Virus record (IMG/VR): IMGVR_UViG_3300024429_000008
Location: 1-53,958 of that record
Source of the DNA: a virus
Lineage: Duplodnaviria > Caudoviricetes
Direction: 5' to 3' (one strand)
DNA length: 53,958 nt
The notes under the pieces are model-generated. The model had not been told where the DNA came from. It made no database searches and saw only the letters and a list, made by a program, of their open reading frames with translations. Both the position numbers and the translations under genes were made by a program. Below are positions 1,354 through 53,264 of the stretch, one piece after another (positions within the stretch are counted from its first letter, which is position 1; the number at the start of each line of letters is the position of its first letter).

Positions 1354-2088
1354 GTGAGAGCCGGTACAGAAGCCTTCACTACCAAAGAAACAGGTCGCAG
1401 AGACAGGCTAAACCTGATCTGGCACCCCCAACGAGGGAAACCTGCTATTTTAGCAGATTATACCAGTGCCACCGATGCTACCCGAATGATTGCTGATCCG
1501 GACATGCTGATTGGAGGGACTAACATCGCCTCTAATACTTCAGCAGCGGCCGTTGAAGGGGGGTTGTTCTTAGCAGTAACGGCTGATGCTACCAACGCCG
1601 TGGCTATCTCCCCTCATACCCTGGCCAACAACAGCATCTGGCAGCAAGTCACCTGGGGAACGGACCAGGAAGTGGAATGGGAAGCCCTCCTCCAGTATGA
1701 TGCGGTTATGACTGATCGACTCTTCAAGTGTGGACTGTGTCTATTGCCTGCAACCGTAGACCTGGGCACGGACAACGACCAGATCGGATGGATGGCCGAG
1801 GACGACGGGGTTCTCGATGTCATCGCTTCTATCAGCAACGCCGACGTGACCATAGCCGGAGTGCAAACTGTAGTGGCTAGTCAGTACATCCACTTCGCCA
1901 TCAAGTTCGACGCTACCGGAGTCGCCCGCACTTACATTGATGGGCGTGAGGTACAAGTGAATGGGTACTACCGAGGCAACGCCGTAGATCTATTCCCCTA
2001 CGTAGCTACGCTGGAGGACACTTCCGCAGGTGCTCACCCTAAGATCAACGTCCTGGGGATGGCCATCAGCCGGGCGATTGGTACATAA
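1354..2088 (+). CDS. Putative virion beta-sandwich protein, paralog 3
   Basis: GTG start at 1354 after AAGGAG. Motifs RMIADPD, VEGG, TWGTDQE, YIDGREV. Confidence 0.75.
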   Translation: MRAGTEAFTTKETGRRDRLNLIWHPQRGKPAILADYTSATDATRMIADPDMLIGGTNIASNTSAAAVEGGLFLAVTADATNAVAISPHTLANNSIWQQVTWGTDQEVEWEALLQYDAVMTDRLFKCGLCLLPATVDLGTDNDQIGWMAEDDGVLDVIASISNADVTIAGVQTVVASQYIHFAIKFDATGVARTYIDGREVQVNGYYRGNAVDLFPYVATLEDTSAGAHPKINVLGMAISRAIGT

Positions 2089-2099
2089 GGAGGAGAATC

Positions 2100-2504
2100 A
2101 TGGGTCTAGGTACAGTACGAGCTGGGGCCCCCGTAAAGGGGACCACCGCAGCTGATGGAACTGATGGCAGCCTCACGCTCCCTCGGATCATCCTCTTTGA
2201 TCCTCCAGTGAGGCCATGTATTGTGACAAATCATTGCACTGGGGGAGAAATCCTAGTCAAGGTCAACACTGAGTTGAGTGGTACTGTATCAGAGACCTTC
2301 TCGGCTGCAAACGGCCTCGGTCATGTCATAATCCCCCCCAACATCACCCTGGCCGACGCCGCCAAGGACCACCCCGAGGGTGGGGCCCGCTGGGCTGATG
2401 TGAGCTTCGGAGGACTAGTAGCTGTTCACTCGGTAGCGATCAGTACCGTTGGCCAAAGCGGTCACGACTTGGACGACGTATCCGTGATAGGATTCGAGCC
2501 GTGA
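2100..2504 (+). CDS. Hypothetical protein, probably structural
   Basis: Strong RBS AGGAGGAG; 134 aa, beta-rich; in the same operon as the paralogs. Confidence 0.65.
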   Translation: MGLGTVRAGAPVKGTTAADGTDGSLTLPRIILFDPPVRPCIVTNHCTGGEILVKVNTELSGTVSETFSAANGLGHVIIPPNITLADAAKDHPEGGARWADVSFGGLVAVHSVAISTVGQSGHDLDDVSVIGFEP

Positions 2505-2734
2505 AGCAAGTTGACTCACTCGTAGCTGCTTTGGTAGGCGGGCTTCTGATGTTCCTAGCCCTGTGGCTGACTGTCCAACCTGTCTCTGCCAAAGAGGTAC
2601 ATGAATACGTCCGCTTAACCGTCGAGCGTCGGCTTGACAACATCGAGGATGGACTGAAAGAACTACGTCAAGGCCAGGTAGAACTGCAAAAGGGACTAGC
2701 TGGAGTGGAGGCTATACTTCTTTCTACCCAGTAG
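2501..2734 (+). CDS. Small membrane protein with coiled coil (holin/hemolysin XhlA-like architecture)
   Basis: N-terminal hydrophobic helix LVAALVGGLLMFLALWL, then a heptad-rich segment; GTGA overlap with the upstream gene. Confidence 0.5.
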   Translation: MKQVDSLVAALVGGLLMFLALWLTVQPVSAKEVHEYVRLTVERRLDNIEDGLKELRQGQVELQKGLAGVEAILLSTQ

Positions 2735-2754
2735 CAGAGACAGGGGGAGACAAG

Positions 2755-3060
2755 ATGTTACCCGAGTCGATCCAGATTGGAGCTCACGTCTATTCTTTGA
2801 CACTGGTAGGTCGAAAGAAGTTACAGAAGAATCACACCGCCGAGGTTGATAACGAACAGAATCAAATCCGCATTTATCAGAAGTGCACCGCTTCCCGTCG
2901 GATCGAAGTACTATTTCACGAGGTCATCCATGCCATATTGGCTGGGACGCAATTCCCCATGGAAGAAGTGACTTGTACCATCCTGGGGGAAGGTTTGACC
3001 CAGCTCATCCGAGATAATCCTGAACTAATCAAACATGTACAAGATACCCTAGCCGAATAG
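2755..3060 (+). CDS. Small HEXXH zinc metallopeptidase-like protein
   Basis: EVLFHEVIHAIL motif followed by a downstream Glu (MEE); common small phage family. Confidence 0.7.
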   Translation: MLPESIQIGAHVYSLTLVGRKKLQKNHTAEVDNEQNQIRIYQKCTASRRIEVLFHEVIHAILAGTQFPMEEVTCTILGEGLTQLIRDNPELIKHVQDTLAE

Positions 3061-3078
3061 GCAAGCCCAATTTACGGT
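3057..3078 (+). repeat. 22-bp direct repeat, copy 1 (ATAGGCAAGCCCAATTTACGGT)
   Basis: Identical copy at 8564..8585. Confidence 0.9.
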
Positions 3079-3133
3079 AGTGTTGAGGAAAACTCCAGGT
3101 ACAAGGGCTAGGGAAAAAAACCGAAAAAAAAAC

Positions 3134-3162
3134 TTGCCTTCGGTTGACCGGCGGCATAGAAT
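3134..3162 (+). promoter_or_regulatory. sigma70-type promoter of the ubiquitin-like operon
   Basis: TTGCCT-17 bp-TAGAAT with upstream A-tracts (UP-element-like), followed by hairpin TTTTTCGAC...GTCGAAAAA. Confidence 0.65.
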
Positions 3163-3241
3163 TTTTCGACGACGGCCGCCTCGGAGGCGGGGTCGAAAAA
3201 CTCCCAGCATTGGAAGCAAACAGCACGCACGGAGGATAATC

Positions 3242-3511
3242 ATGCAGAGACAAAGAGTGAAGGGTAGTAAGTGGATTTACTCAATGATCGTAGAGCATTT
3301 TCTCACCAAAGACATAGGGGTGTCACCCGATGGACTCGTACACTCCGATGGAAACGCCTTGTATTGTTGGGGAGTGAGCATAGCACGATGGCTAGACGGG
3401 ATACTACACGTGCGATCCCTAGAGGAATGTACCAAGAATAACGCAGTTCGGGAGGTCCGGGCTGGACTATTGGCAAGCTGCCAGGACAAGGCAGCCAACA
3501 GAAGGAGCTAG
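3242..3511 (+). CDS. Hypothetical protein, first gene of the Ubl operon
   Basis: ATG at 3242 after GGAGGA; 89 aa. Confidence 0.6.
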   Translation: MQRQRVKGSKWIYSMIVEHFLTKDIGVSPDGLVHSDGNALYCWGVSIARWLDGILHVRSLEECTKNNAVREVRAGLLASCQDKAANRRS

Positions 3512-3515
3512 CAGT

Positions 3516-3749
3516 ATGAGCGAGGGCAACGCAATCAACATCACCATTAGGATGGGTGGGGATAGCCTGAATTTCACTTTCCCTAGAGGGACTACAATCG
3601 GGGTCCTGACGGAGGATGGGAGACTACGCGGGTCTGAAGATGCTACTGTACAAGTCAATGGGGTGCAAGCGGATGAGGACACGGTCCTCGAAGACGGGGA
3701 CTGTGTCTCGCAGACGAAAGTGCACGGCCAGCAGGGATCGGACAACTAG
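3516..3749 (+). CDS. Ubiquitin-like beta-grasp protein (ThiS/MoaD/Ubl-like)
   Basis: 77 aa with beta-grasp pattern INITIR..FTFPRGTTIG..VQVNG..DTVLEDGD; ends GQQG-SDN; upstream of E1 and JAB genes. Confidence 0.8.
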   Translation: MSEGNAINITIRMGGDSLNFTFPRGTTIGVLTEDGRLRGSEDATVQVNGVQADEDTVLEDGDCVSQTKVHGQQGSDN

Positions 3750-3763
3750 GTATGTTATTCGTG

Positions 3764-3819
3764 GGCAGAGACAGGGGGACCCCAGGGGATATTATGGTCC
3801 CCACCCCCCTGTCTCTGCC
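3764..3819. repeat. 15-bp perfect inverted repeat built from two 11-mer copies
   Basis: GGCAGAGACAGGGGG (3764-3778) and CCCCCTGTCTCTGCC (3805-3819), intergenic after the Ubl gene. Confidence 0.85.
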
Positions 3820-3849
3820 ATTCTTGATGGGCTAGCTGGAGCAACTACC

Positions 3850-4212
3850 GTGGCAAAGTTTAAGGTTTGGCACCCGGATGGCGAAAGCCACGAGATTATG
3901 GGTGAACTCCGGATACTGACCAGTCAATGTGGACTCCACACTATATTGGCCATCCAGATGGTCCACCCAGTTACGAGTAGCGTGCCAGGTTACCAAGGGG
4001 ATCGGTGGGTCCCAGGAGTACTGTGTCCTATCAATCCTCTTTGTGTTATTGTAGACATGAAGTCAGACAAGATCTGCCACCATCCCCGCCGCCCGCTCAA
4101 CGAACAGCTTATGTCGGACCCGGCTTGGGAGTGGCTGAGGGATAATCCCACTTGGCCAAATGTGCTAGAGTTGGATTGGGAGAAAATGTGGCGTAAGGAG
4201 GATTGGGAATGA
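3850..4212 (+). CDS. Hypothetical protein (Ubl operon)
   Basis: Likely GTG start at 3850 after GGAG; Trp-rich C-terminus; ATGA overlap with the next gene. Confidence 0.55.
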   Translation: MAKFKVWHPDGESHEIMGELRILTSQCGLHTILAIQMVHPVTSSVPGYQGDRWVPGVLCPINPLCVIVDMKSDKICHHPRRPLNEQLMSDPAWEWLRDNPTWPNVLELDWEKMWRKEDWE

Positions 4213-4481
4213 GCTGTGATTGTATAAAACGTATTACCTTGCTGGTTGATCGACTCATCGAGTTGGAGGGCCGCGTAGGTATGATAGAGGCCAACTTGCG
4301 AGTAGCGGCGGAGGCTCTAGGCTTCCCGCCTTGGGATGAGGAAGTACATGGGGGAGGCTTTCCAGCGGAGGAGGATGAGGACCTTCCAGAGATAATCGGG
4401 GAAATTGGAGAGGAGTTTCCCTTTCCAGAGCTGGATGAGAATTTCCCTCCGGTGGAGGCAGAACTCGATGAAGAAAACTGA
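4209..4481 (+). CDS. Hypothetical protein with coiled coil and very acidic tail
   Basis: Translationally coupled on both sides; E/D-rich C-terminal half. Confidence 0.55.
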   Translation: MSCDCIKRITLLVDRLIELEGRVGMIEANLRVAAEALGFPPWDEEVHGGGFPAEEDEDLPEIIGEIGEEFPFPELDENFPPVEAELDEEN

Positions 4482-5190
4482 ACTGTTTGGACCAGGTTGT
4501 GAGTGGGTATTTGTGGGGTGCGGGGGGACTTTCTTTATGGCAATCCCTATATACTCCGTTTTGCTCCATAAGTACAGGCCCGGTAGCATTACGGTCATAG
4601 ACCCAGACCGTACAGAGCTGAAGAACTATGATCGACAATGGCCAGGGCGTGCCCCTGGACAGGAGAAGGCTCATCATGGCCGCGTCGCACTCGGTTGTCC
4701 AGGGGTCTCCATCGCGGAGCGATTCAATCCGAGTGATGAAGTTCTAATCGAGAGGACGGAGGGGAGACCAGTCGTAGCCATTGTGAATGTAGACAATGAC
4801 CAAGCCAGGCTAGACGTACACAGTTGGTTGGCGAGCCGGGTCAGCGATGGAGTTATGATAGATTCCGGTTGTGAAGCTGAGTACGGCCAATCTTGGGCCG
4901 GTATCTGGTTGGGTAGCAAGTGTATACACGATTGGTCGATTACTCACCCGAGTGTTGGGACGGTGGCCCCCGCAGCGGGGGGTGGATGTAGTCCACAGAC
5001 TGCTATGTCAAATCTTATGACAGCAACGTGCTCTGCCCTGATGATCGAAGAAGTAGTAAGATGGTTGCAAGCATTAGATGTAGGGATTCCACTGAGCATA
5101 CAGGAGTATGAATGGCAGATTTGGTCATCCAAGGGGGAAATTAGACTCTGGAATACTAAGATTCCTATACAGGTGGAAGGAAGTACTTGA
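4468..5190 (+). CDS. E1-like ThiF/MoeB-family adenylyltransferase (ubiquitin-activating-like)
   Basis: ATG at 4468 after GGAGG. Motifs VFVGCGG, VIDPD..ELKNYDRQ, K, VNVDN..AR, IDSG; candidate catalytic Cys in GGCSPQ...N. Confidence 0.88.
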   Translation: MKKTELFGPGCEWVFVGCGGTFFMAIPIYSVLLHKYRPGSITVIDPDRTELKNYDRQWPGRAPGQEKAHHGRVALGCPGVSIAERFNPSDEVLIERTEGRPVVAIVNVDNDQARLDVHSWLASRVSDGVMIDSGCEAEYGQSWAGIWLGSKCIHDWSITHPSVGTVAPAAGGGCSPQTAMSNLMTATCSALMIEEVVRWLQALDVGIPLSIQEYEWQIWSSKGEIRLWNTKIPIQVEGST

Positions 5191-6215
5191 TGTTACATAC
5201 GTTAGAAGATATTTGGGAAGACCTTGAGGAGCAGCAATCCAAGCCTAGGGTAACGATGGGTTCTCCTCTCGGCGAGGAGCAACCACTCCTTGAATGGAAG
5301 GATTTAGAGAAGTACACCACGGATGAGAAAACCGACCTGACCATAGGCAGGGACAATCGAGTGTACGGAATACGGGGGGATGTTGTACAGTGTTGGGCTC
5401 CATTAGCACCTACGGGACCAGAGCAGGTATATCTGGATTGTGTCCGATGGGGGAATGCACCTCCCCTAGAACACCTGGCCCATCTGTTTGAACATTTCTT
5501 CCAGAAGTATGATCAAGAAGTGATTATGCTAGTCGGCCAGAAATTGAATGGATCAGAGTGGCTGTACTTTGTACCTCCCCAAGTGGGGACGGGGGGAGGG
5601 GTGAAGTGGGATATCCGGGGGGAGGCTGCAAAAGAATTCACTGGCTTGGCTGTATGGATAGGAACGATCCATAGCCACCCTGGAAATTGCACCAGCCCCA
5701 GTACAGTAGACGTTAGCGAGTGGGCTGATCCCTTATGCTCTGGTATCCACATGATACTAGGGAACGATGGGAGTTATACTTATCATGGAGCCATCGTCGG
5801 GAAAACATTCCCCCTGAAGAGCGGGACTCTAGAAGGGGTTATGCCAGCACCGGTATGGTGGCGACAAAGTGGTGGGCGTAGCTTGGGAGAGTTGCTGCGG
5901 ACTCCACCCCCACTACCGCCTCCAACGCCCACTGTTAAGACGGTGGATACGACCGCGAGGCCCTTTCCCCGACTCCTAAGAGACGAGATCCCTCACCAGA
6001 TTACTCAAGACGAACCCGGACTCCCACCCGACTCCTATTCGTCCCTCGCCTGCGACCGGGATGACCTGGATGATTTACGGATCGTGTTCTCCGGGAATGC
6101 GGTTTGGATTATGACCTCTCTGGAATGCAGCGTTTGGATGAGTGAAAATCCCAGCCTCAGCTCCGAGGTAGAGATTCGGACGCTGCGGATTCCCAACGGA
6201 GGAGAGCCATCGTGA
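5190..6215 (+). CDS. JAB/MPN+ (JAMM) metallo-isopeptidase
   Basis: Exact JAMM motif HxH-x7-S-x2-D (HSHPGNCTSPSTVD) with upstream Glu (QEVIML); Pro-rich linker after the domain. Confidence 0.88.
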   Translation: MLHTLEDIWEDLEEQQSKPRVTMGSPLGEEQPLLEWKDLEKYTTDEKTDLTIGRDNRVYGIRGDVVQCWAPLAPTGPEQVYLDCVRWGNAPPLEHLAHLFEHFFQKYDQEVIMLVGQKLNGSEWLYFVPPQVGTGGGVKWDIRGEAAKEFTGLAVWIGTIHSHPGNCTSPSTVDVSEWADPLCSGIHMILGNDGSYTYHGAIVGKTFPLKSGTLEGVMPAPVWWRQSGGRSLGELLRTPPPLPPPTPTVKTVDTTARPFPRLLRDEIPHQITQDEPGLPPDSYSSLACDRDDLDDLRIVFSGNAVWIMTSLECSVWMSENPSLSSEVEIRTLRIPNGGEPS

Positions 6216-7966
6216 CCCTTAATGAGGTTGTACAACAAGCTATACGGGACCTAGGAACTGTTGACGGCCAGGCATCCGTGAGTGAATACACTAAGACATA
6301 CCCCTACATGGCTGTCCTAGAAACAGAGATGACATCCCGAGTATATCAGGTACTGGAGAGCGTCGTGGGAGGGTCCCCTGACTTCCCCTCACAACATGTC
6401 CACATGAGGCCGTTCCTACCAGATCGTCAGGATATTGATGGAATTTTGTGGGCTGGGGTACCCTCTCTCACCTGTTCAGGGGAATCTGAAGGAGGAGCTC
6501 TAATATTCCACCAGTTCTATGAGGGGCCACCCGAATCCCCCATCGGACCCGTAGCGTTGAGGATTATGCCTGGTCTCCAAGAGACTGACCTAGCTTTCGT
6601 CCCTATGCGATGTAATCGCCTTCGAGAAGTAATGCAAATTAGGGGAGGCCACCAACTTGATGATCCTCCAGAGCAATTCCCAATCGGCTATAATCGGGCC
6701 TGTCAGCCACGGGTGGATCATATAGCCGCCGCGATTATGGCCCTGGGAACGCATCCCGGGACACCTGGAATAGCCTTCCGAGGGTTGCTAGGGGATACCC
6801 CCATCGCAGTTTTTGCCCGGAGTTTGTGGGAGAACCTGTATCGAGATAAGGGTCCACTCTCCCTACAGACAGTAGGCTCACGCTTCGCCCATGCAGCAAA
6901 AATGGTCTTGGCTTATGCTTACCCGACGATGATGAGCCACCCCACATTGGAGGACTTGAAGTGTATTAGGCAGACTCTCAGGCATCCCCTTTGGAGCCTA
7001 GAGGAGGCGTGGCCAACCTATTACAACCTTGTAGTACCCCCTTCTCTCTTTCAGGCCGCTAGAGAATGCATGACTCAAGGACATACCCCTATCATACCCC
7101 AATACATAACATCTACCGTATGGTTATTCAACGGTGGTAGAGATAATTACTGTTTAGGGACTGATCCCAATCCGGGGAATTCTTGGTGGGCCAAGAAGGT
7201 TTGGGCCGGGATGCACTCCGGATTCAATCTCGACATATCGGGTGAATTCTCTAAGTGGCCGGGGCCAATCCCAGCGGAGTGGGCAACTCTGTTAGTACAG
7301 GCCATGCAGGATCAACAGGAAGAAACCCCACACCTGCGAGCTAGCCAGCAGACTGATGCAGGACTAGAGAAGGCCCGGAACGTACCCTGCATGTTCCGGT
7401 GTGTAGACTCAAGCTATGTAACTTCCTTGATCTACAATTTAGTCGATGCCTCGGGTGAGGTGCAATGCTGTGATGGTAACGGGGTTCCCCAAGAGGTCCC
7501 GCCATGCTCGGACCCCCCCTCCAACCCTTTTGAGAGAGAAGATGATGAAGAAAACGAAGATGACGTGTGTGCAGAGTGTAGAGGATCCTTCGATGACTAC
7601 ACAGTCTGCGGGAATTGCCACGAAATCATTTGTTCGGACTGTCACAGTCGCCCTGAAGGGCATGGGGAGTGTAGGTTCTGCCCATGTTGTCGCGACGATA
7701 CAGACCCCCACTATCGGGTTGATATGGCCCCTTGTCACCTTTGTGGCCGCCTCATTTGTAGTGACCACTATGACCATTGCGAGAGCTGCCTGCACTATAT
7801 CTGCTCTGCCTGTGAGTCTGCAGGAGATCACGCCTGTTCCCCCTGCGAAAGGTGCGGTGGACTATCCGACACCCTAGGTACATGCGAACGCTGTGGGACA
7901 GAAGGTCTATGTGCAACCTGCCGCGAGGGTTGCTGCCTCCTCACACAAGCTGACACGGAAGGATAA
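6212..7966 (+). CDS. Putative prokaryotic E2-like domain fused to a Cys-rich multi-zinc-finger C-terminus
   Basis: FNGGRDNYCLG...W...SGFNLD resembles the prokaryotic E2 family D pattern N..x..C.G...S.FN.D. The C-terminal ~130 aa has more than 10 CxxC/CxxH pairs. The E2 call is by motif resemblance and gene context. Confidence 0.55.
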   Translation: MTLNEVVQQAIRDLGTVDGQASVSEYTKTYPYMAVLETEMTSRVYQVLESVVGGSPDFPSQHVHMRPFLPDRQDIDGILWAGVPSLTCSGESEGGALIFHQFYEGPPESPIGPVALRIMPGLQETDLAFVPMRCNRLREVMQIRGGHQLDDPPEQFPIGYNRACQPRVDHIAAAIMALGTHPGTPGIAFRGLLGDTPIAVFARSLWENLYRDKGPLSLQTVGSRFAHAAKMVLAYAYPTMMSHPTLEDLKCIRQTLRHPLWSLEEAWPTYYNLVVPPSLFQAARECMTQGHTPIIPQYITSTVWLFNGGRDNYCLGTDPNPGNSWWAKKVWAGMHSGFNLDISGEFSKWPGPIPAEWATLLVQAMQDQQEETPHLRASQQTDAGLEKARNVPCMFRCVDSSYVTSLIYNLVDASGEVQCCDGNGVPQEVPPCSDPPSNPFEREDDEENEDDVCAECRGSFDDYTVCGNCHEIICSDCHSRPEGHGECRFCPCCRDDTDPHYRVDMAPCHLCGRLICSDHYDHCESCLHYICSACESAGDHACSPCERCGGLSDTLGTCERCGTEGLCATCREGCCLLTQADTEG

Positions 7967-7984
7967 AAATGGCAAAGACAGGAG

Positions 7985-8536
7985 ATGTGGATCATGCAGC
8001 TCCAGTATAATCGGTGTCCTAACGATCCCAACTTGCCAGTAGTCTCCCATGTAGGAATGACCGGTGATGGCAAGGTTGTTGAGGTAGGGCTCGCTGAGAT
8101 AACTAGTGCCCTGTCTCTGTACAGTGCTGCGTGTGTGGTAACTCTGGCAGCAAGGAATGGTATAGTTCCAGATTTCGTTACCCGCGTTGCGATGGCACTA
8201 ACACTTCCAATGAAGGAGGACCCCCATGGATTGTGTCTCCCCACGAAAATACTCATGGAGGCGAGCCTGATCCTGCAAGGACAGAAAATCCTGATGGATG
8301 AAAGGGGTCTCTTGCATACTGATATGGGGAGGCAGGACGGAATAGACCTTTTGAAAGGGTGCTCTCCCCATGTAGAACAGCCACCGTGTTGCAGAGACAG
8401 GCAAAAGATGCTGGAGGCTCTGGAGGATTTGACTAACCAAATGGGGCCTACCTTCGAAGTCGTGGAAGCACATTGTGGTCTAATCGTAGCTGGTTGTTGG
8501 AAGACTGCCCGAACGATTGTCGAATCGGCGGAGTGA
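7985..8536 (+). CDS. Hypothetical protein, last gene of the Ubl operon
   Basis: 183-aa ORF; start may be 7994. Confidence 0.55.
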   Translation: MWIMQLQYNRCPNDPNLPVVSHVGMTGDGKVVEVGLAEITSALSLYSAACVVTLAARNGIVPDFVTRVAMALTLPMKEDPHGLCLPTKILMEASLILQGQKILMDERGLLHTDMGRQDGIDLLKGCSPHVEQPPCCRDRQKMLEALEDLTNQMGPTFEVVEAHCGLIVAGCWKTARTIVESAE

Positions 8537-8563
8537 CGAATCCCAATTTGAGGTCTGGGAGTG

Positions 8564-8585
8564 ATAGGCAAGCCCAATTTACGGT
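8564..8585 (+). repeat. 22-bp direct repeat, copy 2
   Basis: Identical to 3057..3078. Confidence 0.9.
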
Positions 8586-47161: not shown

Positions 47162-47962
47162 TTACACGTGCCTCTTCGCAGGGGGTAGGGTCCCAATGAT
47201 TTCCCCTTCGCTGATGACGATTCGTCGCTTTCCCTTATCCAGTACTCGCACAAAGTCCACCTCATATCCACCCTTTTCTGGATACTTTACCATGGCCCAG
47301 CCCTGCTGCCACTGAGGGACCCCGACAATGTATTCCAGATCGAAGTGGCAGAGACAACCGGCTTCGTAGCCCTCATTGAGCTGGTCCCAGCTACGGAAGG
47401 AGATATGGCCCATCTGGTGGGTGTGGCCCATCAAGATGTTACCCTGAACACGTTGGCAGACAGCCCGTGCTCCCATTCCGCCCGCAGTCATGGCCCAGTT
47501 GCACTTGCGAGCCAGATCTCCATGGAGATACCACAATCCCTGTCGGCCCCCGATACGGTAAGGCTTCTCGGGAGTGTAGTATCGGATGTGGAGCTTGTCC
47601 AGGCCCAGCAGTTGGGGAATGCTCAGATTGCGGATGGGAGCCAACTCTTTAGCACGACCCCACAGCATCCGACGGAGACGGTTCTCGTGATTCCCCTCAC
47701 AGAATCGGATGTCACACCCTCTCGGAGCGATGTCCACCATCGCCTCCAGGAACTCTGTCGCCATGTCAATCTCATCCTGGATGTGGACCTTGCGAAGGGG
47801 ATTCTTATCAAACCGGCTCAGTGTGTAGCAATCAATCAGGTCACCCAAGATGTCTATGCCACTGGGCTGTATGCGGTTAATGTCCTTCAACCACAAGGCC
47901 AAAAGACCCTTATCTTGGAAAGGGAAATGAACGTCACTCAGGACCAATCGCACCGTCGTCAT
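47162..47962 (-). CDS. Calcineurin-like metallophosphoesterase
   Basis: SDVH, GDLID, GNHE, HGD, GHTH. Confidence 0.88.
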   Translation of the reverse strand: MTTVRLVLSDVHFPFQDKGLLALWLKDINRIQPSGIDILGDLIDCYTLSRFDKNPLRKVHIQDEIDMATEFLEAMVDIAPRGCDIRFCEGNHENRLRRMLWGRAKELAPIRNLSIPQLLGLDKLHIRYYTPEKPYRIGGRQGLWYLHGDLARKCNWAMTAGGMGARAVCQRVQGNILMGHTHQMGHISFRSWDQLNEGYEAGCLCHFDLEYIVGVPQWQQGWAMVKYPEKGGYEVDFVRVLDKGKRRIVISEGEIIGTLPPAKRHV

Positions 47963-47963: not shown

Positions 47964-48323
47964 TTATGGCCTCCTCGGTCGGAATAGGGACAAGAAGCTT
48001 TTAAGGCCTTTTATGATGGGTATCCCCAGGGAACGGGCATATTCACACTCCCTATCTGCCCCCGGAGATTTCCCTGGAATCCGCAGGACATAATCAGAAT
48101 CCTTGATGTAGCATTCATCCAGCTCCAGCCACTGCTCATAGGTGATGCGATTGGGCTGCATGAACTCGCAGAACACCGTCAAGTGGGGACAATGAGGGGC
48201 ATAACCCGCTTCGATCAGCGTGAAATGAGCTTCGATAGCCTCGTGAATCTTCTTCATCGAGAAGTTCATCCCTGTGCCGCCCGTCATAGGACCAGCGATG
48301 TAGACTCTCGCCTTTTCCAGCAT
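47964..48323 (-). CDS. DUF4406/DUF1937 nucleoside 2-deoxyribosyltransferase-like protein
   Basis: VYIAGPMTG, PH, SPGADRE..A..LG. Confidence 0.75.
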   Translation of the reverse strand: MLEKARVYIAGPMTGGTGMNFSMKKIHEAIEAHFTLIEAGYAPHCPHLTVFCEFMQPNRITYEQWLELDECYIKDSDYVLRIPGKSPGADRECEYARSLGIPIIKGLKSFLSLFRPRRP

Positions 48324-48369: not shown

Positions 48370-51036
48370 TCAAGTAGCAATTCTCCGAATCTTTACATCA
48401 TAATCCAGTGGTAGCGACCGGCCCAATTCCTCACATAAGGCTCGGTAATATGGGGGGTTTGGCAGAATCCTTTTCAGCAGAGACAGGACGACGGGAAGTT
48501 CACACTCGTGGCATTCAATTGTGGCTGCATCGTACACATTCAGAGGAGTCACAGCCCGCATGTGACGTTGCTTGAAGGCCAATGCCAACTCGAACTGAGC
48601 TGACAGTGTAATGTTCGCGGCGACAGCCTGCACGGGCATGTTGACGATCTCTTTTATCTGGTCCTGTCTCTGCCTCTTGTTCCCTAAGAACAGCCGGGAC
48701 TGACCGACCAGAGGCAGCTCAAAGTAACCGTGCTTCTGGACGAACTCCATCAGTTCATTCTGCCACTTTCTGAGCCCCTGAGCACAACCCCACCAGGTGT
48801 CGATGTCGATCTGGCACTGATCCAAACGACGGGCGATCCCTTCGTCACGCATGAGGGTGGTTTGGTACTGCTTGGCTCCGCCGAGATATATGACCAGAAA
48901 ATTGAGGGTCTTGCCCACCTGGCGGAACCTTTTTCCCGTCTCTTCAGGGAATAACCGATGGGCCGTAGCTAGGTGGAAATCACAGTTCGGTTTGCTGTAC
49001 TCCCCCATCATCCATGGATCATTAGATAGTAAGGCCGCCATGCGGAGTTCAATCTGGGAATAATCGAACCACAGAAGGTACTGGTATCGGGAAGACATGC
49101 ACGCCTTCACCTTGGGAGGGAAGGTCTGGACGGCGGGGCCCTTAGCTACAATACGACACTGCTTTGTTCCCCCACCACTCCCATCTTCCCAATCTGAGGG
49201 AACTGGGTACCATCGGGGGTAAATTGTACTCTCTATGAGTTTGGTGCTTGGATCGTTGTGCTTAGAGCCCCGCCCGACCAGCAATGGATATAAATATCGG
49301 TCGAGGATGCCAGTGACGGTGTGCATAGCCGTAATAGCCCGCAACTGTTTGTAAGGTTCCACGTCGTGAGGGAGGACCGACATCAAAGCATTACGATTCT
49401 CCTCACAATAGCTGATCTCTTGCCGCACGGTGGTCTTTTCCAATGGGGGGACAGGGGCTCCCCCCACTCGACATGCGATAATGGCATTCTTCATCACTTC
49501 TCGCTTGGTCTTTTCACTTCCCTTCCCCCGCAGAGATAGGCCCCAACGGTTCTTGATCCCCGCTTCCAGCTTGCGTAATCTCTCCTCGTAGGATTGCAAT
49601 AATCCTCGCAACTCCGGGGCTGACATTGTGATCCCCGCCTCTTCCATCCAGATAGTCAGCCACAGGAGATCGCTGTACCACTTCCTGTTGAACTCGCTCA
49701 GCTTAGGGGTATCGGCCCCGTATGCGGACGAAATCAAGTCCTCTAAAACCTCTTGTGACCGGAGGGTTGCCGCTGAATCCTGTACATTGTACCGCCACAG
49801 ATCCGGACTCTGCTCGTCTGGGTACTGCCGGAACCCCCCCAGGCGGTACTTCGTCACCCCAAGTAGGGGTGCCAGAGCTTTCAGACTCCTCTCCGGTCGG
49901 CCCTCGTTGTGGAGGTAGTTTGTCACAGTCAAGTCTTGGATAGTCAAAGGGTGATCTAACCACACTCCGCACTCCGGGTATGCGAACCTCAGATACATGA
50001 GATCGAACTTGATGTTCTGGCCGAGGAGGAACTCGAAGTCGTTCCTCTGTGTCCGACATGCTCTTAGCCAGCTCCATAATTTCCTCCTGTGAGTAGAGTC
50101 CGACATCACGAAAATGCAGTGCCTCAACGATCCGCTCAGCTGTCGGTGTGTCAATCCAGTCGTTACACATAAATTTTCCTTTCGTACTTCATCGTAAAGC
50201 ACAGATTTAAGAGGATGGAACTGCGTCTGATTCTGACCTTCCAGAATCCCATAGGTTTCAATATCGAGTGAGAGTTGTCGGATTGGGTAAGAAGGAGGCA
50301 GGGGAGCAACTTCATACTCCATCTCGTCGCCCTTGATTTCGTAGGCCAGGGTTCCCCCCAGGAACCTTTTTAATGTTGAGAGGTGTGCTTCCACAGCTGG
50401 ACCTTTGTTTGGATCCCGCAAGAGGGCAGCCGGGTGATAAGTCGTGAATACTCTACAGGGGGTAGGAAAAGGGGGAGCCGCTGGGTTCGTCAGGTACGGC
50501 CCAACGATCTCCCCCAGAGCGGTAATTGACTTTGGCGTCCTTGCAGTCAGAGCACGAAAGTCCGTGTGCTCTCCTTGTTGGTTGAGGGACTTCTTGAGAG
50601 ACACCCCCAGGATAGACTTGCAGCTTGTGGCCCCAGTTGCCAGAACGATCACCTCTTCATAGCATTTCTGAAGATGGAGGATATCCGCTAGGTAGTACCC
50701 CTGGCACGCCTTGAGCTGGGTCAGGTTCGGAGTCTTGTTCTTAGGGGGACGGCATTTCACGGCGTTGGAGAGGTACACATCTACTTCCTCTGGAAATTGA
50801 AAGTGCTCGATGTAGGCTTTCCTTAGTAGCCCCCCAGCTTTCCCCACCCAGGGGAGGCCCTGCATATCCTCCGTATACCCCGGGGCCTCCCCTATGATGA
50901 ACATACACCGGCTCTTGTCGGTATCTGATGGCTGAACCGGCCAGGGGAGACCCCCATAACGTACCGTCGGTACACACGTGGTGTCACACTGTTCCCATAA
51001 AGGGCAAGCTCGACATTGTGCATTCCGGCAGGACAT
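48370..51036 (-). CDS. polA: Family A DNA polymerase with N-terminal uracil-DNA-glycosylase-like (family 4, Fe-S) domain
   Basis: UDG: CRACPL, IIGEAPG, NAVKCRP, YHPAALLR. Exonuclease: DIET, NIKFD, YNVQD. Polymerase: DYSQIELR, RQVGKTLNF..IY, VYD. Start ATG at 51036 (TAATG overlap). Confidence 0.92.
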   Translation of the reverse strand: MSCRNAQCRACPLWEQCDTTCVPTVRYGGLPWPVQPSDTDKSRCMFIIGEAPGYTEDMQGLPWVGKAGGLLRKAYIEHFQFPEEVDVYLSNAVKCRPPKNKTPNLTQLKACQGYYLADILHLQKCYEEVIVLATGATSCKSILGVSLKKSLNQQGEHTDFRALTARTPKSITALGEIVGPYLTNPAAPPFPTPCRVFTTYHPAALLRDPNKGPAVEAHLSTLKRFLGGTLAYEIKGDEMEYEVAPLPPSYPIRQLSLDIETYGILEGQNQTQFHPLKSVLYDEVRKENLCVTTGLTHRQLSGSLRHCIFVMSDSTHRRKLWSWLRACRTQRNDFEFLLGQNIKFDLMYLRFAYPECGVWLDHPLTIQDLTVTNYLHNEGRPERSLKALAPLLGVTKYRLGGFRQYPDEQSPDLWRYNVQDSAATLRSQEVLEDLISSAYGADTPKLSEFNRKWYSDLLWLTIWMEEAGITMSAPELRGLLQSYEERLRKLEAGIKNRWGLSLRGKGSEKTKREVMKNAIIACRVGGAPVPPLEKTTVRQEISYCEENRNALMSVLPHDVEPYKQLRAITAMHTVTGILDRYLYPLLVGRGSKHNDPSTKLIESTIYPRWYPVPSDWEDGSGGGTKQCRIVAKGPAVQTFPPKVKACMSSRYQYLLWFDYSQIELRMAALLSNDPWMMGEYSKPNCDFHLATAHRLFPEETGKRFRQVGKTLNFLVIYLGGAKQYQTTLMRDEGIARRLDQCQIDIDTWWGCAQGLRKWQNELMEFVQKHGYFELPLVGQSRLFLGNKRQRQDQIKEIVNMPVQAVAANITLSAQFELALAFKQRHMRAVTPLNVYDAATIECHECELPVVLSLLKRILPNPPYYRALCEELGRSLPLDYDVKIRRIAT

Positions 51037-51461
51037 TAGGAATCTTCCTTTGAAGCCTTCTCTATATCTGACTTCAAGATAATCAACCAATGTTCCAGTG
51101 CCTGTACTCGTTCTCTCAAGACTTTCGAGACGCGTCGAACTTTCCAGGGATCATCCCCGGGTGGGGGAGACGGCTCTCGACTCGTCCATTGTCGCTCAGT
51201 GAATAGCTTGGCCTTGCAGGCGACTTCTAGTGCTAGGATCCGCTCTAGGTGGTCATCGCCCCTCTCCTCCTCAATCTCCATCCGCTCGGCGAGACCCTCA
51301 AACCGTATCGTAAGGATCTCCAGTTGCTTCGTTAGGCGACCGAGATTCACCGTCAGGAAGTTGTGACCCTCTTTCAGGAGTTCCAGTTTCTCTGAATCAG
51401 TCTCTGCCCTCATCACTGGCAAATCCTGTCCTGTCTCTGCCACTGGATTCTTTTCAGCCAT
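51036..51461 (-). CDS. Hypothetical coiled-coil protein
   Basis: RBS AAGGAG; coupled to polA. Confidence 0.6.
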   Translation of the reverse strand: MAEKNPVAETGQDLPVMRAETDSEKLELLKEGHNFLTVNLGRLTKQLEILTIRFEGLAERMEIEEERGDDHLERILALEVACKAKLFTERQWTSREPSPPPGDDPWKVRRVSKVLRERVQALEHWLIILKSDIEKASKEDS

Positions 51462-51706: not shown

Positions 51707-51719
51707 AGCTAGCTCCTTT

Positions 51720-51908
51720 CTAGAATCGTCTTACGCCTTCAGGGTTGTCAGTTAATACACAACACGGGATGCCCTCTGTGTTCTTGTAACGCTCTGTCAT
51801 TGCAATGTCATAGTATGGAGAACCCTCTCGGTCATCACAGTTGAAGAACACTACAGAGTAATGTGGAGGGTATTCCTTCAAGGCTTCCTTCAATTCTGCT
51901 ACTGTCAT
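51720..51908 (-). CDS. Small hypothetical protein
   Basis: MTVAELKEALKEYP-type N-terminus; ATG at 51908 after AGGAG. Confidence 0.6.
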   Translation of the reverse strand: MTVAELKEALKEYPPHYSVVFFNCDDREGSPYYDIAMTERYKNTEGIPCCVLTDNPEGVRRF

Positions 51909-51968
51909 ACCAAATGCTCCTATATTCAACAATGGCGGGGCGTCGTGGCTCCGCCGTCTCGACGCAAA

Positions 51969-51997
51969 ATCGTAGGCGACCCGGTGGCGGGAGTCAA
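51969..51997 (-). promoter_or_regulatory. sigma70-type promoter of the replication operon (divergent pair)
   Basis: On the - strand TTGACT-17 bp-TACGAT; A/T tracts lie between the two promoters. Confidence 0.65.
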
Positions 51998-52041
51998 GAA
52001 AAAAAGCAGAAACTTTTTCGTCTTTTTTTCTTATTTTGGGC

Positions 52042-52070
52042 TTGACTTCGGCCTTCGCGGGGCGTATACT
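52042..52070 (+). promoter_or_regulatory. sigma70-type promoter of the paralog operon (divergent pair)
   Basis: TTGACT-17 bp-TATACT; 11-mer at 52077. Confidence 0.8.
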
Positions 52071-52088
52071 AAGGGTGCAGAGACAGGT

Positions 52089-52136
52089 GACCGGGGGAGG
52101 TAATGCAAGACGTTGCACCCCCGGTCCTATTTTTTT
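52089..52136 (+). terminator. Terminator-like hairpin in the 5' leader (possible attenuator)
   Basis: GACCGGGG...TGCAA-GACG-TTGCA...CCCCGGTC followed by T7; flanked by 11-mer copies. Confidence 0.6.
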
Positions 52137-52155
52137 GCAGAGACAGGAGACGAAT

Positions 52156-52737
52156 ATGTCCTTGGATGAGGTAGGGTACACAGGTCGGGACACGACCGAG
52201 AGTTGCGACGACATGACCGGCCTGATGCTCCAGAACCCGCAATCAATGACCCAGGCAGCTGCGGGGCTCGATAGTGCAAGCCTGCCCAGCGAGTCCGCCA
52301 TCGAGATCGAGCAGACCACATATGGCCAGCCATTCATCGCAGCCTACACTGTCATGGCCCATGCAGATGCGGGTGGGGATACTCTTACCATAGCCCTCAT
52401 GGATCCGGCAGGGACGGCAGGGACCCCGAATGGCCCCGCCCCCTTCAAGTTTCAGGTGCTGCGGTGGTGGGTAAAGGCGGGCGACGTTGCGGCGACCCCC
52501 GAAGGTCTGATGACGATCCAACATCTTAGCTCGGCTTCCGCTGCAAGCTCCATGTCAGCACAGTATGATTTGAACTTGGACGCCGATGACGTCGGGTATA
52601 CTGCTGATGGAGCAATTGAGCTAGTAGACCCATATCACATCATTGATACTGGGGAGGGGATCCAGCTATCCGTCGTGCTGGGTGCCAACGAAGAGGCTGA
52701 CTTCGAGATTTACTTCTTGTGCATGAGGGTTCAATAA
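52156..52737 (+). CDS. Putative virion decoration/spike protein, family A copy 1
   Basis: ATG at 52156; shares TG, QNP.SM, YGQ.F, PFKF.VL and CMRV with 53278..53808. Confidence 0.7.
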   Translation: MSLDEVGYTGRDTTESCDDMTGLMLQNPQSMTQAAAGLDSASLPSESAIEIEQTTYGQPFIAAYTVMAHADAGGDTLTIALMDPAGTAGTPNGPAPFKFQVLRWWVKAGDVAATPEGLMTIQHLSSASAASSMSAQYDLNLDADDVGYTADGAIELVDPYHIIDTGEGIQLSVVLGANEEADFEIYFLCMRVQ

Positions 52738-53264
52738 TGGCCGGGTCAAATTACACAATTCACTCTTCGTTGATGGCCCGGGGGGCCGATGATAATAAGG
52801 GTATGAGCGTATCTCCGAAGTTCGCCATGCTAGAAATTGATGGGGATGCTTACGGCAACGGCGTGCTGGCCAACTACCACGAGTTGGTATCCGGCGACGA
52901 CACCGAGGGGACAGGCATAATCGTCCTGTCTCTGCGAGGGATGGTGACAGAAGCCATCGCCCAGGATACCACCCAGATGGTGGCGACTGTCCGAACGAAG
53001 GGGGCAAGCCCCGGGACGATGGGGACAATCACAGCCGCAGACAACCAGCCGGTGGGGGACATCATTGACGGTTCCATCACGGCGTACTGGGGTGAACACA
53101 CGTCCGACGCGGACATCTCGGCCTATTGTGTACCAGCAGGATACGGTTTGGAATGTGCCCTAACCACGGCGGGGTTGGAAACGGACTCATCTGATACCGA
53201 AGGGCGGATTCTGGTACTTGTAGAGTACCTGGTGATTCCGCGTCGAGTTACCGAAAACCAGTAA
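52737..53264 (+). CDS. Putative virion decoration protein
   Basis: TAATG coupling; jelly-roll-like ending GRILVLVEY. Confidence 0.65.
   Translation: MAGSNYTIHSSLMARGADDNKGMSVSPKFAMLEIDGDAYGNGVLANYHELVSGDDTEGTGIIVLSLRGMVTEAIAQDTTQMVATVRTKGASPGTMGTITAADNQPVGDIIDGSITAYWGEHTSDADISAYCVPAGYGLECALTTAGLETDSSDTEGRILVLVEYLVIPRRVTENQ

Follow-up and report, generated by a model that had tools for sequence, protein, structure and literature searches.

The window, the whole stretch of 53,958 nucleotides analysed here, is the complete genome of a phage from an uncultured group. Its genes were mapped by our own rough ORF calling, which gave 73 ORFs, and the placement of all motif copies rests on that map. 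Re-assembly of the sole public run holding the sequence matched positions 1–20000 with zero differences; as this run is probably the source of the window, the match is not independent support, and independent support for the motif lies in relatives assembled elsewhere. A conserved nucleotide-metabolism cluster, with a MazG-like pyrophosphatase, a nucleoside 2-deoxyribosyltransferase-like protein and a metallophosphoesterase, adjoins the polymerase gene. No integrase, repressor or partition gene was recognised in the 67 ORFs scanned (of 73), most of which had no match at all.

Across both strands of this 54-kb genome, the 11-mer GCAGAGACAGG occurs in 36 exact copies between 1397 and 52935 (19 on the + strand and 17 on the − strand), a recount that agrees with the sequence-only reading, while the ten or so near-matches mentioned there correspond to 12 one-mismatch copies (7 +, 5 −). 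The core is in slightly wider use, with 41 occurrences of CAGAGACAGG and 43 of CAGAGACAG, and the flanks of the 36 copies show no conservation beyond about 3 bases. The copies are the following (sense and antisense refer to local transcription):

1397–1407, +, in ORF 1354–2088, sense, reads RRDR
2579–2589, −, in ORF 2501–2734, antisense, reads PVSA
2734–2744, +, at an ORF edge, 10 nt 5' of ATG 2755, sense
3765–3775, +, intergenic, left arm of a long hairpin with the 3808 copy (−43 kcal/mol, z −4.6)
3808–3818, −, intergenic, right arm of the hairpin with the 3765 copy
8391–8401, +, in ORF 7994–8536, sense, reads CRDR
9082–9092, +, intergenic, one-mismatch inverted partner at 9136 (−)
10448–10458, +, in ORF 10325–10588, sense, reads AETG
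11575–11585, +, in stretch 11314–11833, which has a single weak 47-aa ORF call
11802–11812, +, 3 nt past the −10 of promoter-like site 11770–11798, 21 nt 5' of ATG 11834
12352–12362, −, intergenic, antisense
13281–13291, −, 18 nt 5' of ATG 13310, adjoining the Shine-Dalgarno, antisense
13711–13721, −, 14 nt 5' of ATG 13736 (primase/helicase), antisense
14782–14792, +, in the primase/helicase ORF, sense, reads LQRQG
16058–16068, −, 15 nt 5' of GTG 16084, also within overlapping ORF 15624–16640
18938–18948, −, between ATG 18966 and the stop of TerL, place and orientation shared with contig L083
22781–22791, −, 13 nt 5' of ATG 22805, antisense
24388–24398, +, right after terminator-like hairpin 24363–24380 and its T-run, 22 nt 5' of ATG 24421
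24529–24539, +, in ORF 24421–24837, sense, reads AETG, same place in L083
24857–24867, −, 16 nt 5' of ATG 24884, antisense, same place in L083
29096–29106, −, in ORF 28956–29186, antisense
32025–32035, −, in the 17-nt spacer of promoter-like site 32013–32041
33586–33596, +, in ORF 33458–35584, sense
36487–36497, −, in ORF 36032–37327, antisense
36743–36753, +, in ORF 36032–37327, sense, reads AETG
40969–40979, +, in the tandem winged-helix gene, antisense, reads SCLC
41327–41337, −, in the tandem winged-helix gene, sense, reads AETG
42699–42709, −, intergenic, 10 nt 5' of GTG 42688, sense
43991–44001, +, in Sak4-like ORF 43180–44073, antisense
45694–45704, +, in MazG-like ORF 45269–45805, antisense
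48477–48487, +, in the DNA polymerase ORF, antisense
48663–48673, −, in the DNA polymerase ORF, sense
51430–51440, −, in ORF 51036–51461, sense, reads AETG
52077–52087, +, 6 nt past the −10 of the early rightward promoter, leader position kept in 5 of 5 genomes
52137–52147, +, immediately downstream of the leader hairpin with its T-run, 8 nt 5' of ATG 52156
52925–52935, −, in ORF 52737–53264, antisense

Dinucleotide-preserving shuffles of the window (n = 100) yielded a mean of 0.05 copies and at most one, against the 36 observed. Half of the copies (18/36) lie in ORFs and the other 18 between ORFs or at an ORF edge; those in ORFs use all six frames (AETG and xLSLx five times each, (x)QRQx three times, xRDR and PVSA twice each, SCLC once). 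Synonymous-codon shuffles that kept the proteins left 0.21 in-ORF copies on average (maximum 2) where the window has 18, and in four relatives the real and shuffled counts were 28 vs 0.7, 23 vs 0.86, 19 vs 0.61 and 17 vs 0.6. The k-mer enrichment hence survives a codon-shuffled null model and the constraint acts on the nucleic acid, as had been claimed from the letters; neither composition nor coding can produce it.

With respect to local transcription, 18 window copies are sense and 18 antisense, which bears out the earlier remark that the sites, unlike stoperators, have no orientation bias; over five genomes, the in-ORF copies divide into 44 sense and 61 antisense. Regionally there is a weak trend for the purine strand to be sense more often within the early rightward block and antisense more often within the structural one; related genomes were pooled for this test, so that the data points are not independent. 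Seven antisense copies of the window stand 13–19 nt 5' of start codons, directly next to the Shine-Dalgarno. The window's own layout suggests a regulatory role at gene boundaries. Among the four relatives, 76–86% of the sites are in genes, and the proportion lying within 40 nt of a gene start (0.09–0.14) shows no enrichment over random positions (0.09–0.13); a purely regulatory role at gene boundaries is therefore not the rule of the family. Spacing is slightly more even than random (largest gap 4.3–5.1 kb vs 5.7–8.0 kb expected; CV 0.70–0.90 vs 0.94–0.97).

Judging from the sequences of relatives, the motif is a trait of the phage group and comes in “dialects” specific to each lineage. GCAGAGACAGG is the form found in the window and one metagenome contig (L083, TerL 75% identical, 8 copies in 21.9 kb), three relatives use CCGGGAGAG and one uses TCGGGAGAG, two contigs have TGTGGGTGAGATT, and contig L088 has 6 copies of TGGGTGAGA in 7.3 kb. 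In the four relatives with complete or nearly complete records there are 22–38 copies per genome, on both strands, and the density is 22–41 sites per lineage, or about one per 1.3–2.1 kb. Across the five tabulated genomes, GCAGAGACAGG, CCGGGAGAG and TCGGGAGAG are almost mutually exclusive, since GCAGAGACAGG was found in none of G001, G003, G004 and G005, G003 has 29 copies of CCGGGAGAG and 0 of TCGGGAGAG, and G004 has 22 of TCGGGAGAG and 0 of CCGGGAGAG. The relatives share a common core, CGGGAGAG (G003 15+/15−; G004 11+/12−; G001 14+/9−; G005 22+/16−), which occurs 0–2 times in controls and once in the window. The window phage is an outgroup to these four genomes and nearly every one of its proteins is as divergent as the motif, so that phylogeny alone accounts for the distribution of the dialects and covariation singles out no protein.

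Conservation in related phages, named beforehand as a check, holds for orthologous positions: G005 keeps intact 17 of the 24 G003 sites that align with it (vs 12.8% of background 9-mers), the figure from G001 to G005 is 6 of 14 (vs 6.6%), and three window sites keep their place and orientation in L083. The flanks of shared sites change in concert. Two bases 5' of the core, G003 has G and G005 has A at 14 of 17 sites; G004 has T where G003 has C (4/4) and where G005 has C (5/5); just 3' of the core, G004 has A and G005 has T at 5 of 5. Co-evolution with one reader would predict such a pattern, which is not predicted by the copy-and-paste of a mobile element. Taken with the dialects and the orthologous sites, it points to a nucleic-acid code read by a sequence-specific factor, and this is the part of the proposed genome-wide protein-binding code for which the relatives give strong support.

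Several copies are associated with promoter-like sites, which are matches to the consensus:

52042–52070, +, early rightward promoter, sigma-70-like, TTGACT-17-TATACT, same arrangement in relatives
52089–52136, +, leader hairpin (GGGGGAGG arm) followed by a T-run, terminator-like (−34.3 kcal/mol, z −5.2)
11770–11798, +, sigma-70-like promoter, TTGACT-17-TATACT, motif copy directly after
32013–32041, +, sigma-70-like promoter, TTGACT-17-TATAAT, motif copy in the spacer

The leader hairpin is also present in G001, G003, G004 and G005, and in 5 of 5 genomes the promoter is followed by a motif, a strong hairpin with T-run and the first gene, in that order. The 32055 ortholog has a motif within its promoter or next to it in 3 of 5 genomes; in G003 and G005 this is their own version, immediately upstream of the −35.

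The best candidate reader is a family-specific protein with a predicted tandem winged-helix fold:

40921–41412, −, 163-aa protein with two winged-helix domains, candidate motif reader (predicted binding)

Its residues 93–161 match the PadR/MarR families of Pfam and its residues 4–72 match phrog_1123. The AlphaFold model (pLDDT 85) comprises two helix-helix-helix-strand-strand units, and its Foldseek matches are tandem winged-helix proteins and MarR/ArsR/PadR repressors. Of the two proteins put forward in the sequence-only reading, this one is a confidently modelled tandem winged-helix protein, while for 15239–15646 the model had low confidence and none of its structural matches was significant; beyond 40921–41412, no sequence-specific DNA binder was recognisable in the 67 of 73 ORFs scanned. 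Each of the four relatives with complete or nearly complete records has an ortholog, and all 38 homologs found are metagenomic, no given source name being tied to a cultured organism. The first recognition helix (LPQTVYPCFTQLCK) is identical across dialects, while the second helix and its wing vary. This would fit a common GAGA-type core with variable flanks, but the unvarying first helix could equally read another conserved target, e.g., an origin.

We therefore favour, with a probability of about 0.5, the interpretation that the 11-mer marks the dispersed sites of a co-evolving sequence-specific factor, most likely phage-encoded, with 40921–41412 as the best candidate. Such a factor would read double-stranded DNA at the 11-mer in either orientation, and with two winged-helix domains a single monomer could recognise an asymmetric site of about 11 bp; as its specificity drifted, the sites would follow, giving rise to lineage dialects. 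Regulation would probably be the role of the copy lying after the early rightward promoter and before the terminator-like hairpin, and perhaps also of the copy in or beside the promoter ahead of the 32055 gene in some lineages, whereas in-gene copies may be additional occupancy sites that act as roadblocks or mark the genome as a whole. It is not obvious what a phage would gain from being stably bound at about 30 positions within genes, in either orientation. A precedent comes from cluster A mycobacteriophages, whose repressors are described in PMC9283540 and PMC6550527 as monomers with two DNA-binding domains that bind more than 20 asymmetric 13-mers, the motifs varying by subcluster together with the repressor. 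The window sites resemble these stoperators in being numerous and asymmetric, but stoperators are orientation-biased, in contrast to the 18:18 seen here. Readings based on Chi, uptake sequences, RNA seeds or artefacts fit worse than dispersed factor sites.

A host factor might read the motif instead, as a Chi-like signal to the nuclease with which the host processes breaks, an uptake-sequence-like mark or a defence-passing site, each dialect then reflecting a different host; we judge this unlikely. Many Chi sequences are purine- and G-rich, as are the motifs of the window group, and the slightly even spacing would suit a signal needed on any DNA segment. The density, the in-gene copies in all frames and the lineage dialects also recall Chi-rich phages, such as phage LLS with 23 Chi sites (one per 1.86 kb; PMC12315714), and DUS dialects (cf. 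PMC3630211). The Chi-rich phages of PMC12315714 nevertheless have strong orientation bias (20:3, 32:0), sites clustered to one end and no recombination module, whereas our motif is balanced (19:17, 22:16, 15:15, 11:12), its sites are dispersed and the phages that carry it possess genes for a Sak4-like annealing protein and a PD-(D/E)XK exonuclease. Furthermore, closely related phages with 75–89% identical TerL differ by single motif positions, a pattern closer to a phage system under rapid evolution than to a recombination signal of the host. A scan for two close copies in one genome each of 185,579 species, which misses sparse or shorter host motifs and unsampled hosts, detected no dispersed dense copies of the 11-mer, its inverted pairs (70 loci) and direct pairs (79 loci) being only isolated hairpins or local tandem repeats.

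That an enzyme of the phage, rather than a binding protein, acts on the motif, by nicking it site-specifically (as happens in T5-like phages) or by a site-specific base modification marking phage DNA, appears improbable. An exact, long word with few degenerate copies (36 exact vs 12 one-mismatch) is typical of enzyme recognition, and the conserved cluster beside the polymerase and the many ORFs without known family leave room for such an enzyme; yet no methyltransferase, nickase or base-exchange enzyme was recognised in the 67 of 73 ORFs scanned, modification targets are not normally enriched 100- to 700-fold, and the conserved early-leader placement beside a terminator-like hairpin is not predicted.

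We give even less credence to a function in RNA, in which a leader small RNA running from 52077 to the T-run would pair through its seed with CCUGUCUCUGC by ribosome-binding sites, or an antiterminator would read the sense copies. The early promoter does set the motif at about +1, ahead of the terminator-like hairpin, the seven antisense copies adjoin Shine-Dalgarno sequences, and intergenic copies of the relatives are mostly sense (8/9, 4/6, 3/3, 3/3). Given the nearly balanced orientation, however, either version leaves about half of the sites unexplained; moreover, in the four relatives the sites adjoin ribosome-binding sites no more often than chance would give, and an Rfam search returned zero matches.

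Finally, the copies could be non-biological, i.e., library or assembly artefacts or scars of small mobile elements, in that the motif contains the 8-mer AGAGACAG, the final 8 bases of the Tn5 mosaic end, and some intergenic copies sit in short segments missing from relatives (e.g., after the TerL stop, absent in L001); but in all 36 copies this 8-mer is preceded by GC and followed by G, and none of them runs on into adapter sequence, the limited flank conservation is as noted above, and relatives from other assemblies carry words of their own. This reading is practically refuted by the independently assembled L083, which has the same word in the same places, by the change of orthologous sites through point substitution rather than insertion, and by the half of the copies that lie within ORFs whose frames are unbroken.

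The 11-mer GCAGAGACAGG is present in 36 exact copies in the window (19 on the + strand and 17 on the − strand), as the sequence-only reading had counted, and the rarity by chance that this reading had calculated was borne out by 100 dinucleotide-preserving shuffles (mean of 0.05 copies vs. 36 observed). Since only 12 copies with one mismatch were found, the word is sharply defined, and the bases around it show no conservation beyond a weak T-richness 5′ and G-richness 3′. According to our gene map, which was produced by a crude script based on codon usage and ribosome-binding sites and is thus approximate (73 ORFs, 92.8% coding), half of the copies (18/36) lie inside ORFs, spread over six reading frames. 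When codons were shuffled synonymously, so that the proteins were kept, a mean of 0.21 and a maximum of 2 copies (100 shuffles) were obtained vs. the 18 observed in ORFs, hence coding cannot explain them. The remaining 18 copies are packed into the non-coding 7.2% of the genome. Start codons lie 8–22 nt downstream of twelve of the 36 copies, which occur in either orientation there, and three copies touch strong sigma-70-like promoter matches (11770–11798, 32013–32041 and 52042–52070); a 19-mer combining the motif with a Shine-Dalgarno sequence had no match in the viral contigs scanned. The motif is a genuine feature, under strong selection at the level of DNA.

A remnant of a Tn5/Nextera adapter (the motif has eight bases in common with the end of the Tn5 mosaic end) is rejected, as GC precedes and G follows these bases in 36/36 copies and the adapter continuation is never seen. 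An artefact is likewise rejected by the position of the copies, half of which are in frame within genes and which are internal rather than at contig ends, and by an independently assembled metagenome contig of a relative (L083), which has the same word at the same places, i.e., after the terminase stop, within the ortholog of 24421–24837 and after that gene. Among public sequencing runs, the window sequence is contained in one DNA run and in no RNA run, and the contig re-assembled from that DNA run reproduces window positions 1–20000 without differences; this single run is probably the window's source, so it adds nothing independent. The re-assembly is 53,982 nt long vs. 53,958 nt for the window, a 24-nt excess that could reflect overlapping ends, if the assembly is circular or terminally redundant.

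The record consists of a single contig, covered completely by the window (53,958 bases), and no larger genome stands behind it. Among the products encoded are a large terminase, a primase/helicase, a family-A-like DNA polymerase, a PD-(D/E)XK exonuclease, a Sak4-like annealing protein, a MazG-like pyrophosphatase and a Cpn10-like protein, and most of its other ORFs have no match in PHROGs or Pfam. A megablast search of positions 1–20000 against 50,697 phage records returned no match and thus no close relative, and the best protein matches among the 50,697 deposited phage genomes are below 60% identity. In viral and metagenome collections, relatives of the terminase reach 69–75% amino-acid identity, four of which were fetched as whole or near-whole records (G001, G003, G004 and G005). 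TerL relatives were also sought in bacterial and archaeal genomes, where 0/15 candidates were confirmed, so that prophages give no hint of the host. A dedicated search returned no tRNA for the window, and Rfam gave no match at gathering thresholds. A limited check of the full-text literature, which does not prove absence, found no description of the phage group or of its motif.

All four relatives carry their own version of the word, as do further metagenome contigs.

Dialects of the motif in the window and its relatives (genome or contig: word; copies)
Window: GCAGAGACAGG; 36 copies in 54.0 kb
L083, metagenome contig: the window's 11-mer, usually extended by GC; 8 copies in 21.9 kb
G001, fetched relative: (a)CCGGGAGAG(a); 20 copies in the fetched 40,000 bases and 21 in the complete record (40,395 bases)
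G003, fetched relative: (a)GCCGGGAGAG; 29 copies
G005, fetched relative: (a)ACCGGGAGAG(t); 37 copies
G004, fetched relative: ATCGGGAGAGAG; 22 copies
L087 and L088, metagenome contigs: tTGTGGGTGAGATT; core 6 times in 7.3 kb (L088)

The motif is a family trait with lineage dialects, and the group is one of uncultured phages sharing it in that form. The window's word is absent from the four fetched relatives and, more generally, each of the five tabulated genomes uses almost only one of the window motif, CCGGGAGAG and TCGGGAGAG: CCGGGAGAG has 0 copies in G004, TCGGGAGAG has 0 copies in G003, and the window has none of either. A common core, CGGGAGAG, is found 23–38 times per genome in the four relatives, on both strands, vs. 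0–2 times for a reversed control word, and the copies inside ORFs are about 30-fold above the expectation from synonymous shuffles in every relative. The dialect can also serve as a simple sequence marker to sort the metagenomic contigs of the group into lineages.

Between G003 and G005, 17 of the 24 alignable sites are intact vs. 12.8% identical background 9-mers, and between G001 and G005, 6 of the 14 aligned sites are intact vs. 6.6%. Where sites are shared, the dialects differ in concert. Two positions 5′ of the core, G003 has G and G005 has A at 14/17 shared sites; immediately before the core, G004 has T where G003 has C (4/4 shared sites) and where G005 also has C (5/5); immediately after it, A in G004 corresponds to T in G005 (5/5). 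These concerted changes are point substitutions at orthologous places, many of them within genes, which rules out copies of a mobile unit. Site turnover is observable too, with a copy in L083 at a place where the window encodes ALALH, not ALSLH. The simplest account would be that the preference of one reader shifted and that selection then aligned the sites. This record of evolution is of unusual clarity, with individual positions of the motif replaced in concert at no fewer than a dozen orthologous sites. Altogether, the dialects, the conserved orthologous sites and the concerted changes support the claim, put forward in the sequence-only reading, of a genome-wide code residing in the nucleic acid.

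The absence of orientation bias, also claimed there, holds for the window (18 sense vs. 18 antisense copies), and the four relatives are mixed. Counts on the + and − strands are 19:17 in the window and 22:16, 15:15 and 11:12 in relatives, and no polarity switch of the motif strand is visible along the genome maps. When four genomes are pooled, the purine strand is sense:antisense 28:14 in the early block and 21:37 in the structural/late block (p = 0.004), but no single genome is significant (p = 0.15–0.44) and the genomes share sites, so this orientation by operon is a weak trend only. In its placement of sites, the window is atypical, with half of them between genes and many beside ribosome-binding sites, whereas 76–86% are inside ORFs in the relatives (intergenic sites from 3/22 to 9/37), where nearness to gene starts is at chance level. 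Spacing is slightly more even than random, with a largest gap of at most 5.1 kb in four genomes, a trend based on weak statistics.

One location is common to all five genomes, in which the same order is found (5/5): an early rightward sigma-70-like promoter, the motif of the lineage, a strong hairpin (GGGGGAGG arm) with a T-run, and the first gene. In the window, the promoter is at 52042–52070 and the hairpin at 52089–52136, and the leader folds at −34.3 kcal/mol (z = −5.2). The promoter of the 32055 ortholog has the motif in 3/5 genomes, within the spacer and antisense in the window, just 5′ of the −35 and sense in G003 and G005. Moreover, G004 and G005 have a second intergenic terminator-like hairpin with the motif directly before it.

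An extended −35 element, TTGACTT(C/G)GG, separated by 17 nt from a hexamer resembling TATAAT, recurs at 4–10 places per genome in the window (52042–52070, 32013–32041 and 11770–11798) and in the four fetched relatives; this shared promoter element suggests, from its sequence, a reliance on a host sigma-70-type holoenzyme. The longest nearly ORF-free stretch of the window (11314–11833, ~520 bp, the sole call being a weak 47-aa ORF at 11618–11761 on the − strand) contains a strong promoter match together with two motif copies, and the primase/helicase gene lies ~1.9 kb further downstream; this stretch is a candidate origin or regulatory hub. A tRNA-like 3′ end 5′ of the motif in G001 and G004 was discarded, as ARAGORN did not call it; the only tRNA called is a tRNA-His in G001 (13460–13533 of L108, the locus of that genome), the gene of which lies directly downstream of a motif copy.

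A single product of the 67/73 ORFs scanned was recognisable as a sequence-specific DNA binder, namely the 163-aa protein encoded at 40921–41412 (−), one of two candidates named in the sequence-only reading. Its C-terminal half has PadR/MarR-type matches, while its N-terminal half corresponds to a phage family of unknown function. The structural model (38-sequence alignment, pLDDT 85) has two winged-helix units and a conserved linker, and Foldseek returned tandem winged-helix proteins (TFIIIC, a Pol III subunit, ScpB) along with MarR/ArsR/PadR repressors. By analogy, it is plausible that such a predicted two-domain monomer could read an asymmetric word of 9–11 bp. Orthologs exist in 4/4 fetched relatives (45–47% identity to the window's protein, 68–77% among themselves), in which the first recognition helix is invariant across dialects and the second helix and the wing vary; the window being the outgroup to its relatives for nearly every protein, covariation with the dialect singles out no protein. 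The other candidate, 15239–15646, yielded a model with a pLDDT of 65 and no structural match at E ≤ 0.001, its best weak structural matches being, for this low-confidence model, Xis/BldC-like winged helices; from its position, it may be a small terminase.

Judging from these sequence comparisons, the motif is most probably the target of a DNA-binding protein that the phage encodes and that co-evolves with its sites, at least one of which, in the early leader, would be regulatory. If a phage protein does read the sites, the group would provide a natural series for the study of specificity, with dozens of targets changing together, and would point to a genome-wide phage function outside current models (repression, Chi, packaging signals). 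A bolder version, which we regard as rather unlikely, is a private ‘self’ code, in which a fast-evolving tandem winged-helix reader would tell the phage's own DNA from that of the host and of related co-infecting phages. The word of the lineage would then be sown genome-wide, coding sequence included, for selective packaging, protection or exclusion of competitors, and an arms race among related phages would have left its trace in the dialect shifts at orthologous sites. If true, this would be the viral counterpart of uptake-sequence dialects.

Alternatively, the reader could belong to the host and the sites be Chi-like or uptake-like, as would suit both their density and their dialects. Chi-like polarity is nonetheless rejected by the balanced strand counts, the sites are dispersed, and the phage encodes its own recombination genes (the Sak4-like protein and the PD-(D/E)XK exonuclease). 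In addition, a search for close pairs of the 11-mer in one genome per species (185,579 species), which is insensitive to sparse sites, revealed no genome with dispersed dense copies; the 70 inverted-pair loci and 79 direct-pair loci recovered could be put down to unrelated hairpins, tandem repeats in coding sequence and, in one MAG, a REP-like element. Sites for an enzyme that nicks or modifies DNA are possible, but no such enzyme was recognised among the 67/73 ORFs scanned. Finally, RNA-level readings leave half of the sites unexplained, and a small-RNA seed is rejected given the near-equal numbers of sense and antisense copies.

In the species-genome scans, eight loci of one Desulfobacteraceae MAG (L008, L024, L029, L031, L033, L056, L065 and L070) share a 28-bp hairpin of identical sequence, in which the window's 11-mer and its complement flank GCATGC, with close variants in L048 and L053. 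It has a REP-like look and is probably a sequence coincidence.

To our knowledge, only one phage group, the Cluster A mycobacteriophages, has been studied in depth for asymmetric sites that are dispersed and read by a single protein; there, the sites are orientation-dependent and act in lysogenic silencing. The present group, which is uncultured and unrelated to them, displays the same scale of site multiplication, with no orientation dependence and most sites within genes. By analogy, the motif system would work most like the Cluster A operator/stoperator network. According to PMC9283540 and PMC6550527, the operators/stoperators of these phages (L5, Bxb1, TipsytheTRex) are read by a monomeric two-domain repressor and, as here, tens of copies of an asymmetric 11–13 bp word are distributed over a ~50-kb genome, some of them at promoters. 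By the Cluster A criterion (>20 copies, ~13 bp), the window has 36 exact 11-mers and its relatives 22–38 copies. The Cluster A word also varies by lineage in these accounts (PMC9283540, PMC6550527), as the dialects and concerted changes do here, where the link to a protein is inseparable from phylogeny, and the repressor, like our candidate reader, has two DNA-binding domains per chain (PMC9283540). In contrast, Cluster A stoperators are described in the same texts as lying mostly in short intergenic spaces, in one orientation to transcription, with an orientation-dependent function (PMC9283540, PMC6550527), whereas orientation is balanced here and 50–86% of the sites are inside genes. Intergenic or early-promoter siting of the Cluster A kind concerns 18/36 non-coding copies in the window, 3/22–9/37 in the relatives and the early-leader site in 5/5 genomes. 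Moreover, Cluster A phages have a temperate life cycle. Here, the 67/73 ORFs scanned, most of which are matchless, gave no hit to an integrase, parAB or CI-like protein; the candidate reader is a tandem winged-helix protein, whereas the Cluster A repressor combines an HTH with a ‘stoperator domain’, and no sequence relation between them was found. As the defining orientation rule failed, and without the repressor type and the temperate context, the system resembles that of Cluster A and is not a member of it.

Other known systems share single traits with the motif. Cluster K mycobacteriophages have start-associated sequences (SAS), which are linked to translation starts and keep a single orientation; 12/36 window copies are likewise just 5′ of starts, but in both orientations, and the relatives are at chance level. 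The C1 operators of phage P1 are also many, asymmetric and dispersed over a phage genome, and are tied to the promoters of a temperate plasmid prophage. As for the DUS of Neisseriaceae, their density of about one per 1–2 kb is similar to that of the motif. As reported in PMC3630211 and PMC3868556, the DUS is, like our motif, a short asymmetric word on both strands, genic and intergenic, with lineage dialects that co-evolve with the reader, the ComP receptor; here, co-evolution of the reader is presumed. The evolutionary pattern of the motif thus recalls, by analogy, that of DUS dialects, but DUS belong to bacterial chromosomes and DNA uptake, whereas the carrier here is a phage genome and no dense bacterial genome was found in the pair scans. 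The Chi-rich lambdoid phages LLS and MD8, according to PMC12315714, have 23–32 sites per genome, about one per 1.9 kb, i.e., a comparable density of actively accumulated sites. Their word is the host's own, their sites are oriented 20:3 and 32:0 and cluster near one end, and they lack a recombination module (same source). The 17-bp repeats of Cluster O (Corndog group) are another parallel, since PMC4351075 describes >30 copies genome-wide, partly inside genes and mostly off promoters, in phages that are not obviously temperate, with an unexplained function. These repeats have dyad symmetry, from which a dimeric binder is predicted, and are denser toward one genome end, whereas our word is asymmetric (not its own reverse complement, the flanks adding no symmetry) and dispersed; it also has dialects, none of which are mentioned for Cluster O in the text consulted (PMC4351075).

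Several features of the gene map deserve a brief comment. The neighbouring ORFs 4468–5190 and 5190–6215, kept in G003, G004 and G005 at 34–45% identity, have weak ThiF-like (E1-like) and prokaryotic JAB matches, both below Pfam cut-offs, and may be a phage ubiquitin-like conjugation or deconjugation pair. Beside the DNA polymerase, a cluster encodes the MazG-like pyrophosphatase (45269–45805), a metallophosphoesterase (47162–47962) and a nucleoside 2-deoxyribosyltransferase-like protein (47964–48323), the latter among the best-conserved small proteins (56–68% identity), which hints at nucleotide-pool manipulation or a non-canonical base. Just upstream of the large terminase, the long ORFs 15624–16640 and 16084–17055 overlap by ~550 nt in different frames, the start of the second carrying a motif copy and a Shine-Dalgarno sequence; two genes, a frameshift or a small terminase are the options. 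The Cpn10 (GroES-like) co-chaperonin gene (41402–41701) adjoins the winged-helix gene. Finally, the adjoining ORFs 594–1340 and 1354–2088 look like tandem paralogs, since both match one region of the relatives, while ORF 69–584 matches the relatives just beside that region; all three are devoid of a known family.
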